34,539 nt of DNA from a virus. This document shows positions 3,890 through 34,539 of the stretch, in pieces; position 1 is the stretch's first letter; each line of letters begins with the position of its first letter. Under the pieces are notes generated by a model. The model was not told the DNA's origin and made no database searches. It worked only from the letters and a program-made list of their open reading frames with translations. The stretch lies in the UHGV virus genome UHGV-2132316, one strand, 5' to 3'. A program made the translations under genes and the position numbers.

Positions 3890-4401
3890 TGGCTGTACCA
3901 AAACATCTTCGCTTTTTTACGTTGTTTGTGGATGGTGAAAACGAAGTGGGTAAAGTGACATCCGTCACGCCGCCCAAACTGACGCGCAAAACCGACAGCT
4001 ATCGTGGTGGTGGCATGATGGGGGCGGTAAGTATTGATCTCGGTCTGGACGACTCCGCGCTTGATGCGAGTTTTGTTATGGGGGGAGCTGTTCGTGCGCT
4101 GTTCCTTAAATATGGCGGCACGATTGACGGCACGCTGCTGCGTTTTGCGGGTGAATACTACACCGATGCAGAAAGCGATCTGTATGAAATCGAGATGCGC
4201 GGACGTGTGACGGAAATTGATATGGGGGAAGCCAAACAGGGCGAAGCCACATCACACACTTACGCTGTCAAAAACACCTACTACAAGCTGAGCGTTAACG
4301 ATCGCCCGCTGTGGGAAATCGACCTGTTGAACCACATCTACCGGAAGGACGGCAAGGACATTGTGCCTGACCGTATCCGTTCCGCGCTTGGGCTTGGCTG
4401 A
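3889..4401 (+). CDS. FII: Tail tube protein (P2 gpFII-like)
   Basis: 170 aa ORF; start overlaps the FI stop (TGATG); position and size match gpFII. Confidence 0.88.
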   Translation: MAVPKHLRFFTLFVDGENEVGKVTSVTPPKLTRKTDSYRGGGMMGAVSIDLGLDDSALDASFVMGGAVRALFLKYGGTIDGTLLRFAGEYYTDAESDLYEIEMRGRVTEIDMGEAKQGEATSHTYAVKNTYYKLSVNDRPLWEIDLLNHIYRKDGKDIVPDRIRSALGLG

Positions 4402-32164: not shown

Positions 32165-32339
32165 CAACATGGCGGGCCACGTCTTTGGTGATTTTCTTAA
32201 TCAGCTTTTTATCCCTGACCATAAACTCGCCTCGATTGGTGCGAATCATGAAGCCCGTTTGCATATCTTTTAAATGGGTGTCCAGAATGTCGTTGCATTC
32301 ACGCACCCGGTTTTCGTGGTTGGCTGTTTTCTGGCTCAT
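32136..32339 (-). CDS. Hypothetical early protein (67 aa) directly after cox
   Basis: ATG with GAGGT RBS; the track ORF extension overlaps cox in another frame and is rejected. Confidence 0.5.
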   Translation of the reverse strand: MSQKTANHENRVRECNDILDTHLKDMQTGFMIRTNRGEFMVRDKKLIKKITKDVARHVDGELLKLGM

Positions 32340-32349
32340 CGCGTTAACC

Positions 32350-32631
32350 TCAAAGACCGATCCACAGCAACCAAGCATCGCGCTGTTCTTTCGGACGGTT
32401 GTAGTAGGCGTCTCGCATTGCGCGGTTGAACTCAGGGATATAGATCCAGTTCTCAGCGCGGGCGCCCAAGCTTTCCGGGTTCTTCCACGGGATGATCGGC
32501 AACTTACCGTCTTCAATCATGCTCTTAACCGTGGCGGGCTTCTTACCGATCAATTCGGCAAATTTTGGGTATGGAACCGCGTCAACAGCGTGACGCACTT
32601 CAATGAACCCCTCTAACTCTTTGTCTGTCAT
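32350..32631 (-). CDS. cox: Cox-like excisionase / early-promoter regulator
   Basis: 93 aa; ...F..LIGK......MI..GKLP.I......S.......W.Y.P.......AY..RPKE.RD.WL.W.GL pattern matching remembered P2 Cox. Confidence 0.8.
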   Translation of the reverse strand: MTDKELEGFIEVRHAVDAVPYPKFAELIGKKPATVKSMIEDGKLPIIPWKNPESLGARAENWIYIPEFNRAMRDAYYNRPKEQRDAWLLWIGL

Positions 32632-32726
32632 AGTGTTTTACCTCTCATTGAAGATAGGCCGGGATTTTTAGCCACGCCCGGCGCGTGGTATTCTGGTGTT
32701 TCCACACAACCAGAAAGGAGATTTTT

Positions 32727-32963
32727 ATGTCTCAGAAAGAAGTACCTATCTACATTCCTGCTGAACTTGAATACCTCGTTGCTAATGACTTGGCTTGCTT
32801 ACGCTTCCACTACCACTTAGCTACACCTACAAAACTGCCCGAAGCTGGTGAGCTGTTTACTGGTTTAACCGTTGAGCAAGCAAAAGACACCGTAACCTTC
32901 CTTCAGCAATACATTGCTAAAGCTGAACTTGCCGCCTCACTGTCCCCGAAGCGGAGCCACTAG
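32727..32963 (+). CDS. Hypothetical 78-aa protein inserted between cox and C
   Basis: ATG with a strong AGGAG RBS at 6-nt spacing; no recognisable motif; track ORF starts at an upstream GTG. Confidence 0.55.
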   Translation: MSQKEVPIYIPAELEYLVANDLACLRFHYHLATPTKLPEAGELFTGLTVEQAKDTVTFLQQYIAKAELAASLSPKRSH

Positions 32964-33135
32964 TTTTAACCGTCCCCGCATAACGTCCATTTGGGAAATA
33001 ACTACGGCGGAATTCAGCAAAATGGATTCCGTCACTTCTGTTGTCCTGCTCAAGTCTTCCACTCATTTGTGCTAATCTCCGCATTAGCGCTAGGCGCTTA
33101 TTTCGGCTTGTAACTGCTTATATTGGCGGTTGCTC

Positions 33136-33180
33136 ATGGTAGAGATTACCACCCTTAAGGAGAATGTTATGGTAGAGATC
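33136..33180. promoter_or_regulatory. Two 12-bp direct repeats ATGGTAGAGAT(T/C) 33 bp apart, the second containing the C start codon; candidate operator half-sites
   Basis: Exact repeat read directly; function inferred from P2-type repressors binding direct repeats. Confidence 0.4.
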
Positions 33181-33489
33181 CCTACCCCGTCAAGCGGCGT
33201 GGGTGAAAAAATCAGAGCTATCAGAGATGCAGAGGGGTTAACAAGGCAGCAATTCTTTGAATTAACTGGAATACCTGCTGGCACGCAGAAGTATTACGAG
33301 ACAGGAAGAGTGGAGAGCATTGGTAGCGATATCTTGCTTAAGATCACTCAGCATTCACGTTTCGCAAAATATACGCTCTGGCTAATGACTGATAAGACCG
33401 CCCCTCAAGCTGGTCAAATCGCACCGGCCCTCGCACACATTGGGCCAGAGTCAACTGGATCAGGCCGCTCAGAGACACAAACTGGCTAA
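33169..33489 (+). CDS. C: Immunity repressor C (P2 C-like, HTH)
   Basis: Start at ATG 33169 with AAGGAG RBS; ...KYTLWLMTDKTAPQAGQIAPALAHIG... closely resembles remembered P2 C. Confidence 0.85.
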   Translation: MVEIPTPSSGVGEKIRAIRDAEGLTRQQFFELTGIPAGTQKYYETGRVESIGSDILLKITQHSRFAKYTLWLMTDKTAPQAGQIAPALAHIGPESTGSGRSETQTG

Positions 33490-33558
33490 CCATCTATAAA
33501 CATTACATTTTCACTATCTATTACCAGGATGGGGAAATAAACGCCGGAGGGCTTTCTT

Positions 33559-34539
33559 ATGTCGATTAAGAAGCTCGAAGGTGGTCAATATGAAGTAGAC
33601 GTATGGCCGCGCGGACGTAACGGAAAACGTATCCGCAGGCGATTTGAGAAGAAACAAGAGGCGGTTCTTTTTGAGCGTTATGTATTAGCCAACGCCGACA
33701 AAAAAGAGTGGCTGGGCGCGAGCGTTGACCGTCGCACCTTAAGCGAGTTGTTAGATACCTGGTGGCTGCTGTACGGACAGACTCAGGAAAATGGCGAGAT
33801 TGAAAAGCGGCACCTGAATAAAACAATCAGGGCACTGGGCGATCCAGCCGTTAACCGACTGAACAAGCGAATGATTGCTCAGCACCGAGGCCAACGGCTG
33901 GAAGACGGTATCAGCGCTGCAACGATCAACCGGGATATTTACCGCTTATCCGGGATGTTCAGCACGTTGATAAAACTGGAAGAGTTCAGGAAGGAAAACC
34001 CCTGCAAGGGTCTAGAACCATTGAAAGAAGCGCCGCCAGCTATGACCTATCTAGCAAAATCAGAGATCAGCAGATTGCTGGATACTCTGACCGGCGACGA
34101 TCGACGTGTAGCACTGCTATGCCTCAGCACCGGCGCACGCTGGGGCGAAGGCAGCACGCTGCGAGGTGAGCAGGTTAATCACGGGCGCGTAACGTTCCTT
34201 AAGACCAAAAACGGAAAAAAGCGCACCGTTCCGATATCGGAAGAACTGGAGAAAGAGATCAAGACCAGCGACACCGGGCCACTGTTCAAAGTTGACTATG
34301 AAAACTTCTGCGAACGACTCAAACAGGTTAAGCCCGATTTACCACGTGGGCAGGCCACACACGTTCTTCGGCATACTTTCGCAAGCTGGTTCATGATGAA
34401 TGGAGGAAACATTATTGCGTTACAGCAAATTCTGGGGCACGCCAGCATACAACAGACGATGGTTTATGCTCACCTTGCCCCCGATTACCTGCAACACGCG
34501 GTAACGTTAAACCCTCTCGGCGGTGGGCTGGCGGTGTGA
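33559..34539 (+). CDS. int: Tyrosine integrase (P2 Int-like); stop codon is the last three bases of the window
   Basis: 326 aa; ...LCLSTGARWGEA..., HVLRHTFAS, ...MVYAHLAPDYL... motifs of P2-type integrases. Confidence 0.92.
   Translation: MSIKKLEGGQYEVDVWPRGRNGKRIRRRFEKKQEAVLFERYVLANADKKEWLGASVDRRTLSELLDTWWLLYGQTQENGEIEKRHLNKTIRALGDPAVNRLNKRMIAQHRGQRLEDGISAATINRDIYRLSGMFSTLIKLEEFRKENPCKGLEPLKEAPPAMTYLAKSEISRLLDTLTGDDRRVALLCLSTGARWGEGSTLRGEQVNHGRVTFLKTKNGKKRTVPISEELEKEIKTSDTGPLFKVDYENFCERLKQVKPDLPRGQATHVLRHTFASWFMMNGGNIIALQQILGHASIQQTMVYAHLAPDYLQHAVTLNPLGGGLAV

Follow-up and report, generated by a model that had tools for sequence, protein, structure and literature searches.

At its right end, the virus genome UHGV-2132316 (a stretch of 34,539 nucleotides, hereafter the window) carries the immunity region of a P2-like (Peduoviridae) prophage, in which 537 bp, counted from ATG to ATG, separate cox from the immunity repressor gene C. 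This spacer contains a gene of 78 codons, orf78, and a palindrome upstream of it. Comparison with related phages indicates that the spacer is an inserted accessory-gene cassette and not part of the lysis–lysogeny switch, and that orf78 is a real, mobile prophage gene under purifying selection. It is probable that the segment 32637-33062 is a horizontally acquired, self-contained moron (morons are promoter-gene-terminator units expressed from a prophage, as defined for HK97 and HK022), which is expressed in the lysogen and antagonized by antisense transcripts from the early promoter Pe. The gap, the open reading frame (ORF), its Shine-Dalgarno sequence, and the palindrome were all found where a preliminary description of this DNA had placed them. 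The features of the cassette are as follows:

32637-33062: inserted DNA that Enterobacter phage phiT5282H lacks, about 434 bp in all (426 bp and an ambiguous junction of 8 bp), with boundaries from blastn
32656-32717, plus strand: conserved control element of about 60 nt (a sieB-leader/sas-like module), the single site found in the window by a covariance model (81.7 bits)
32658-32663 pairing with 32677-32682: helix P1 of the control element
32672-32677 pairing with 32683-32688: helix P2 of the control element, the palindrome CCACGC-CCGGC-GCGTGG
32691-32699 pairing with 32706-32715: helix P3 of the control element
32686-32694, plus strand: candidate extended -10 sequence TGgTATTCT (TGGTATTCT) for orf78, a conserved motif
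32716-32720, plus strand: Shine-Dalgarno sequence AGGAG, 6 nt before the ATG of orf78, read from the sequence and conserved across loci
32727-32963, plus strand: orf78, supported by 18 homolog clusters and by the ratio of nonsynonymous to synonymous substitution rates (dN/dS)
33006-33043, plus strand: terminator-like hairpin from a terminator scan, with its stem at 33006-33033 and a weak T tail, ACTTCTGTTG

Phage phiT5282H, whose Cox, C, and integrase proteins are 95–99% identical to those of the window, has only 100 bp between cox and C, which bears out the earlier premise that this gap is short in relatives. In blastn comparisons, phiT5282H matches the window at 32300-32636 and 33063-33700, and SEN5 matches it at 32300-32697 and 33064-33700. 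Because the homology to phiT5282H stops at 32636 and restarts at 33063, the window contains about 430 bp of extra DNA. The Salmonella phages SEN4 and SEN5 have the first 61 bp of the insert in common with the window (to 32697, the palindrome included), followed by a different cargo of 744 bp with other small ORFs. The G+C content of the cassette is 0.477, compared with 0.53 for the window and 0.493 for the early region as a whole. The insertion point lies between the original ribosome-binding site of cox and the cox ATG, and two features mark it:

32632-32657, minus strand: the present cox leader, a replacement, with the ribosome-binding site GAGAGG, read from the sequence and from alignments to SEN5 and phiT5282H
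33064-33080, minus strand: relic of the former ribosome-binding site of cox, with GGAG at 33077-33080; it aligns with the site used for cox in phiT5282H and for SEN5_33 in SEN5

Judging from these alignments, the new cox ribosome-binding site arrived with the insert. The SEN5 counterpart of 32632-32657 is related but divergent and falls within the same 91%-identical BLAST piece. The relic now precedes only the ATG at 33064-33066, which opens a 49-codon frame antisense to the 3' end of orf78. This minus-strand frame (32917-33084, 49–55 codons, starting just past the relic) is probably a by-product of the insertion and not a gene. The insertion has displaced cox by about 430 bp from its promoter. 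Given this insertion point, a transcript from the candidate Pe would first run through about 525 nt, in antisense to orf78, and only then reach cox. To place orf78 inside the switch, as had been done, is thus misleading: the insertion has left intact the block with the candidate Pe, Pc, and operators (about 33064-33195), which is located on its right.

A random, non-conserved open frame would have refuted the preliminary description, by its own terms; the gene proved to be conserved. Its homologs form 18 clusters (clustered at 90% identity) of proteins with 97–54% identity, all about 74–87 amino acids (aa) long, from Rahnella, Yersinia, Enterobacter, Escherichia, Serratia, Photorhabdus, and Salmonella. 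Even at about 32% identity the protein remains conserved over its full length, and 6 alignment columns are invariant and 7 nearly so. Pairwise dN/dS values are 0.05–0.15, with synonymous sites saturated, and the Shine-Dalgarno sequence, which directly follows the C/A-rich stretch CCACACAACCAG, is also conserved. An ORF that is open by chance, within a cox leader that does not code for protein, would agree with an annotation as hypothetical protein only and with the lack of any Pfam, PHROG, PADLOC, or NCBIfam family above threshold; given the selection, the conserved columns, and the conserved Shine-Dalgarno sequence, this explanation is refuted for practical purposes. A profile search of 1.84 billion representative sequences returned 11 matches. 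Those of about 41–82 aa resemble family members, some of them more distant, and three long repetitive proteins were dismissed as low-complexity artifacts. Using tblastn, no match to ORF78 was found in 50,697 phage records, which included lambda and P22-like phages carrying sieB.

We compared about 40 orf78 loci from genomes and IMG/VR. The gene was found only in early/immunity regions of P2-like phages, always on the strand of int and opposite to the early genes. It lies between cox and C in the lineage of the window, in Erwinia sp. OLFS4 (99%), and in Yokenella and Trabulsiella, and deeper within the early region in Escherichia coli, Morganella, Photorhabdus, E. tracheiphila, and others. Near-identical cassettes (96–100% identity of the ORF) adjoin C alleles of 100%, 86%, and 63% identity, and there are phages with the same cox, C, and int that do not have the cassette. 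Complete E. coli genomes rarely contain it in full (2 of 5,426), and its product there bears no annotation beyond hypothetical protein. Prophages whose cox, orf78, and int are identical were also observed to carry C alleles that are only 86% or 63% identical; swapping of immunity type appears to be confined to the C gene.

The most conserved part of these loci is upstream of the gene: in all of them, about 65 nt are conserved above the level of the coding sequence. These nucleotides can form three helices, two of which, P1 and P2, are interleaved and therefore mutually exclusive. Each helix is retained with compensatory changes. P1 (GCCGGG/CCCGGC) also occurs as GCCTG/CAGGC, GCCGAGA/TCTCGGC, and CCGAT/ATCGG; P2 (CCACGC/GCGTGG) as CCATGC/GCATGG, CCAC/GTGG, and CGCGC/GCGCG; and in P3, TTCTGGTGT...ACAC(A)ACCAGAA is replaced by TTTCTCGTGT...ACA(G)CGAGAAA. 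For P2 and P3 together, 88% of helix cells are paired, compared with 35–52% in slid controls, and both partners vary in 11 of 15 pairs; since the alignment had been fitted to the model, these figures are biased in its favor. Covariation of P1 was taken from an anchored script and not from the pair-counting tool, because the 5' arm of this helix is misplaced in MAFFT alignments. Thus, the palindrome, which had been reported as an isolated CCACGC-N5-GCGTGG, is more than a chance feature, being kept with compensatory changes in dozens of loci. On this comparative evidence it is one helix of a widespread sieB-leader/sas-like element and not an isolated operator. Several other readings were rejected: a P1/P2 pseudoknot (zero linker nucleotides between the arms), a LexA box in P3 (wrong spacing), and a sigma-54 or sigma-E promoter (no fit).

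The covariance model was built from 13 short-leader copies, none of them sieB leaders. It nevertheless recovers the sieB leaders of a P22-like phage (E-value 3e-13) and of lambda (E-value 1.8e-9), and also HK225, SEN5, HK639, and the second of two tandem copies in Trabulsiella. No Rfam family covers the element, be it that of the window or those of lambda, the P22-like phage, and Rac.

The motif TGGTAT(T/A)(C/T)T is kept in short-leader copies, and in long-leader copies it is also kept, about 8 nt further from P2. That it is kept though displaced argues for a promoter, from which the orf78 transcript would start near 32701. Downstream of the gene, the hairpin stem ACGGCG(G/A)AA...TTC(C/G)CCGT is homologous across orf78 loci. 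Its T tail contains 6–9 T in most loci with a convergent next gene and 2–5 T in three lineages where C follows; the tail in the window has 5 T in 10 nt. These three independent lineages offer a slight hint that transcripts might read through into C and int.

Using blastn, we found that a 72-nt stretch of the window matches intergenic DNA of other temperate phages. Together with the covariance model, this places the element at the following sites:

SopEPhi (AY319521): before an unannotated 91-aa plus-strand ORF at 2569-2844, between fil and cII (PHROG 10549)
phiES15: before an unannotated 95-aa plus-strand ORF at 2567-2854 (PHROG 8894)
HK639: before a plus-strand ORF in the 2603-2824 region, encoding a 73-aa zinc-ribbon protein and followed by a terminator
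Rac-SA53: upstream of rac10
HK225: upstream of gp66
Fels-2: intergenic, upstream of an ORF
SEN5: upstream of SEN5_34
P22-like phage: in the sieB leader (blastn E-value 1e-8)
lambda: 34395-34454, upstream of sieB

The ORFs behind the element in SopEPhi and phiES15 both fall in gaps of the deposited annotation. HK639_45 and STM2733.1 of Fels-2 (about 1590-2000), both annotated on the minus strand, overlap plus-strand ORFs behind the element that have good ribosome-binding sites, and the deposited strand calls for these two genes may be wrong.

To survey the cargo of the element more widely, we used one 18-nt variant of P2, which occurs in at least 120 IMG/VR contigs, 80 of which were examined. 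The first downstream ORFs with a Shine-Dalgarno sequence fall into about 40 mostly unrelated clusters, and most are 26–190 aa long; some of the shortest ORF calls are probably spurious. Members of the orf78 family account for 6 of 72 cargo ORFs. By a crude measure, the 1.5 kb upstream of the element are mainly coding on the opposite strand in 61 of 76 cases. The scanned cargo lacks known functions except for SieB and BssS-like proteins. Considered together, the sequences suggest that the element is a general front end of morons, with about 40 clusters of cargo and P2-like phages among its carriers.

Additional observations were made on some of these loci. One IMG/VR cargo protein weakly matches Pfam GhoS, an antitoxin endoribonuclease (E-value 7e-4, just below threshold), and the cargo of phiES15, which is related to it, has no Pfam match; based on the GhoS-like match, some of the cargo may be related to toxin–antitoxin systems. 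In Trabulsiella guamensis, two tandem elements (2424-2468 and 3930-3992 of the locus sequence) lie between cox and C, the first preceding about 1.5 kb of other cargo and the second an orf78 homolog, which suggests morons stacked at the same site. In Rac-SA53, the minus strand of 1138-1371, adjoining the element and rac10, contains near-threshold Rfam matches to STnc100 (43.8 bits) and DicF (41.1 bits), and similar sequence is visible in phiES15; small-RNA genes and the element seem to cluster in early-left operons. The element was not found in ST64B, a phage with an antisense moron whose transcription has been published, and none of the BTP5 transcripts in the same paper is relevant.

Antisense control of sieB by sas RNA was reportedly described by Ranade and Poteete in 1993, whom reviews cite for it. 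Passages in reviews state that sas antisense RNA switches sieB translation from SieB to Esc. Reads of P22 sas RNA cover 127 nt on the minus strand (P22 11387-11513; PMC13397905, Table 2), and we found them to be the exact complement of the element plus the start of sieB. The minus strand of the window folds with the same order of hairpins as P22 sas, without the extra 5' hairpin of P22, and a corresponding RNA can be predicted:

32650-32735, minus strand: predicted sas-like antisense segment of the Pe transcript, with the hairpin order of P22 sas

This segment is complementary to the start codon, Shine-Dalgarno sequence, and leader of orf78, followed by hairpins P3' and P2'/P1'. Both the existence and the ends of such an RNA in this phage are predicted by analogy with P22.

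A reasonable hypothesis is that the cassette consists of a control element of about 60 nt with its -10 sequence, a C/A-rich leader with a Shine-Dalgarno sequence, orf78, and a terminator-like hairpin, and that it would work as follows. In the lysogen, C would repress Pe, and orf78 would be transcribed from its own promoter on the strand of C and int and translated efficiently. Upon induction, or in an unrepressed superinfecting relative, Pe transcripts would cross the cassette in antisense to reach cox. They would include a structured, sas-like stretch with complementarity to the ribosome-binding site of orf78, and this would turn off the synthesis of ORF78 in lytic growth, as for sieB and sas in P22; convergent transcription might add interference. 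The suggestion that the ORF is a moron expressed in the lysogen is favored in its first part by the insertion, the -10 and Shine-Dalgarno sequences, the terminator-like hairpin, and the constant orientation with C and int, while we infer expression in the lysogen, as well as the use of the promoter and the effect of the antisense RNA, from these signals.

ORF78 (78 aa, soluble, with a conserved C-terminal His) has no match at threshold in Pfam, PHROGs, PADLOC, or NCBIfam, and a sequence-profile search of the Protein Data Bank (PDB) gave nothing. Its AlphaFold model is mediocre, with a predicted local distance difference test (pLDDT) score of 70, strands at residues 13–19 and 22–28, and a helix at 49–71; a structure search with this model found no structural neighbor. 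A lead to its family came from another cargo of the same control element, which is a bona fide BssS-family protein (PF13991, E-value 1e-17). Pfam BssS is also the top sub-threshold match for ORF78 (12.6 bits, E-value 0.15) and matches 6 of the 18 family members, with a best E-value of 0.0025. When the ORF78-family profile was aligned with the profile of the prophage BssS-like proteins using hhalign, the two matched end to end over 75 columns (Prob 83.3%, E-value 8.6e-6). The model of the BssS-like prophage protein (pLDDT 76) has strands at 12–19, 26–32, and 44–51 and a helix at 53–73, and the two models are collinear in the hhalign register. Based on the profiles and models, ORF78 is quite probably a remote member of the BssS family, with a predicted beta-beta-beta-alpha arrangement. 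Thus, the earlier statement that the product has no recognizable motif holds for library matches at threshold and not for remote similarity, and the sensitive homology and structure searches proposed there yielded no threshold match or structural neighbor, the BssS profile match being their positive result.

BssS is known only as a small regulator affecting biofilm formation and indole/autoinducer-2 (AI-2) signaling. No solved structure of BssS was found, and the literature found on its biofilm and signaling function describes no role in phage exclusion. By analogy, ORF78 most likely acts on the host cell, through a BssS-like modulation of physiology, or on other phages; its role would be either host modulation or phage exclusion, and an action on the C/Cox switch is unlikely. 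Two further matches were set aside. Four apparent relatives in Clostridia metagenome-assembled genomes, which came from a genome scan, are leucyl-tRNA synthetases sharing FTGLTVEQAK(D/E), a segment identical to the start of the ORF78 helix; they were judged to be chance matches. A weak covariance-model match downstream of K-12 bssS is merely the bssS terminator region. The promoter region of chromosomal bssS in K-12 (minus strand, about 4020-4045 of the locus sequence, upstream of bssS) contains TTGGTATACTGAAGTTGCTTCAG, which resembles the extended -10 sequence plus a P3-like hairpin of the phage element, without P1 and P2.

Several points weigh against a lysogen-expressed, BssS-like moron under sas-type control. 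The orf78 promoter is a motif with a weak -35 sequence, because of which a consensus scan missed it. The lambda/P22 form of the element lacks the extended -10 motif; therefore, parts of the element may work differently in the two forms. Asymmetries between G-U and A-C mismatches in the helices are mixed and do not tell which RNA strand is selected. We know of no demonstration that sas controls any cargo other than sieB, and that sas is made by early pL transcription is taken here from general background. P22 sieB has an in-frame internal product, Esc; ORF78 has no internal Met and thus no SieB/Esc-type pair, although an internal GTG or TTG start is possible. With regard to the BssS assignment, the Pfam score of 12.6 bits is below the gathering cut-off of 27 bits, and in comparisons against single sequences the Prob is 3–6% only (6% for K-12 BssS alone).

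An alternative is that ORF78 is a component of the lysis–lysogeny switch, such as an anti-repressor, a co-repressor, or a modulator of Cox or C, and that the palindrome is an operator for ORF78, C, or Cox. The position between cox and C in the window, Erwinia, Yokenella, and Trabulsiella, transcription towards C and int, and the weak terminator tail in those loci, which could allow read-through into C, would all suit such a role. However, phiT5282H has the same cox, C, and int without orf78, which is absent from SEN5 as well; the gene lies deeper among the early genes in several lineages (E. coli, Morganella, Photorhabdus, E. tracheiphila, and others); and the same cassette occurs beside three different C alleles. 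This mobility and the variety of C alleles argue against a role tied to C or Cox. Moreover, the palindrome-bearing element is also present in lambdoid and 186-like phages with unrelated repressors, and ORF78 is not basic and lacks a DNA-binding motif. A switch component is accordingly very improbable, and the suggestion of an anti-repressor or regulator, put forward in the preliminary description, finds no support in the varying position of the cassette, its varying C neighbors, and its absence from phages with the same switch.

The two other alternatives concern what the element does and what its cargo does. The element could be punctuation of morons at the DNA level, either a promoter together with a hairpin or terminator that insulates or a hotspot of recombination by which cargo is moved, with no antisense function outside sieB. 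It lies exactly at the left boundary of the cassette and is common to unrelated cargo, as a recombination joint would be; P2 followed by T-rich sequence resembles a plus-strand terminator in long-leader forms; and the -10 motif is conserved. Against this, P3, located at or after the predicted plus-strand start, keeps compensatory changes (for example, U-A in place of G-C in E. coli and an exchange of the whole stem in the lambda/P22 form), which fits a transcribed minus-strand RNA, and the minus strand of the element accumulates as sas RNA during P22 infection (PMC13397905). We consider punctuation alone unlikely, if a serious competitor. A somewhat smaller chance is given to the possibility that ORF78 serves in exclusion or abortive infection, or acts as a small toxin, and would harm the phage's own lytic growth, which would explain the silencing element of the sieB type. 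SieB, the sole characterized cargo of the element, is an exclusion factor, and the orientation and prophage-only distribution of orf78 fit a defense gene. On the other hand, no PADLOC defense model was matched, ORF78 lacks a membrane segment, the remote similarity is to BssS, a biofilm and signaling regulator with no exclusion role reported, and the cargo of the element is very heterogeneous. A lysogen-expressed moron silenced in antisense therefore remains our preferred explanation.

The genes and signals flanking the cassette are as follows:

32350-32631, minus strand: cox (Cox-like excisionase/repressor; Pfam Phage_Cox, E-value 1e-23; PHROG 272, E-value 4e-39)
33064-33195, both strands: immunity switch block, conserved with phiT5282H and SEN5 (96% identity to both)
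33119-33124, plus strand: candidate -10 sequence of Pc, TATATT, read from the sequence
33193..33164, minus strand: candidate Pe, TTGACG-N18-TAACAT, from a promoter scan
33136 and 33169: direct repeats ATGGTAGAGAT, candidate C operators, read from the sequence
33169-33489, plus strand: C immunity repressor, 106 aa from an ATG with a strong Shine-Dalgarno sequence (PHROG 147, E-value 4e-36; weak HTH_31/HTH_3 Pfam matches)
33559-34539, plus strand: integrase (Pfam Int_N and Phage_integrase)

The start codon of cox, the first recognized early gene, is at 32629-32631 on the minus strand, and its product has 98% aa identity to its phiT5282H and SEN5 counterparts. Pe, Pc, and the C operators in the 33064-33195 block are named provisionally by analogy with P2, whose layout we assume to apply here. 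The two repeats, at 33136-33154 and 33169-33189, read ATGGTAGAGAT(T/C)(A/C)CC... and are spaced 33 bp apart. They flank the -10 sequence of the candidate Pe and overlap both possible start codons of C, and by the same analogy they are likely to be C operators. With repeats over both ATGs, the start of C is ambiguous, and relatives are annotated with either; judged from AAGGAG located 6 nt upstream, it is most likely at 33169, the alternative being the ATG at 33136.

It is possible, and we propose it tentatively, that the element is a portable switch, on in the lysogen and off in lytic growth, for dozens of unrelated small accessory proteins in P2-, 186-, and lambda-type enterobacterial phages. 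If so, it would combine a promoter and leader on one strand with a sas-type structured antisense RNA on the other, one of its cargoes would be a prophage-specific branch of the BssS family, and P22 sieB-sas, known since 1993, would be one instance of a general mechanism of moron control. The element also makes the generality of sas-type antisense control directly testable. In the papers searched, we found no description of a prophage-specific BssS-like family, nor of the reuse of the sieB/sas element by unrelated accessory genes, and the novelty lies less in the ORF than in these two. The BssS-like assignment is a first one for this unannotated family of prophage proteins. The shared RNA/promoter element, which is absent from Rfam, could be used in searches for accessory genes of prophages, of which several lack an annotation or may be annotated on the wrong strand. 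In this phage, transcription now has to pass a leader of about 525 nt, antisense to a gene proposed to be expressed from the prophage, to reach cox, which commits the phage to lytic growth and excision; therefore, convergent transcription or RNA pairing could alter induction relative to relatives of the phiT5282H type.

The present system can be compared with several known ones. BssS of E. coli (YceP, PF13991) is similar to ORF78 in size (74–84 aa) and in the predicted strand-strand-strand-helix order, and both families end C-terminally in a basic residue followed by His; the identity between them is about 25%, and the ORF78 family differs in being found only in P2-like prophages. The pE promoter of phage 186 and Pc of P2, like the candidate orf78 promoter, direct transcription towards repressor and integrase and converge on the early lytic promoter. 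In contrast to these, no CII-type activator site was identified here, and the orf78 unit, being mobile and located at a distance from C in other phages, does not amount to a promoter dedicated to establishment.

Morons, P2 examples of which are old, tin, and fun(Z), resemble the cassette in that they are present in some phages and absent from close relatives and are oriented in a way suited to the lysogen; the candidate promoter and the terminator-like hairpin of the cassette would correspond to their own signals. The known moron and defense hotspots of P2 lie elsewhere than in the cox leader. Unlike typical morons, the cassette is located in the 5' leader of cox, beside the switch, and its 5' control element is common to many unrelated morons. 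Finally, sieB of P22 and lambda differs from orf78 in its cargo, SieB, a membrane protein to which ORF78 shows no similarity in Pfam, PHROG, or PADLOC. Its host phages are lambdoid, whereas the phage here is P2-like, and in our proposal the antisense RNA would come from Pe rather than from pL; the orf78 leader is also shorter, lacking the second hairpin of P22 and lambda and having an extended -10 sequence. The two systems agree in that the gene is located opposite the early lytic operon (orf78 on the plus strand, cox and the early genes on the minus strand) and is preceded by a homologous leader of about 60 nt with P1, P2, and P3.

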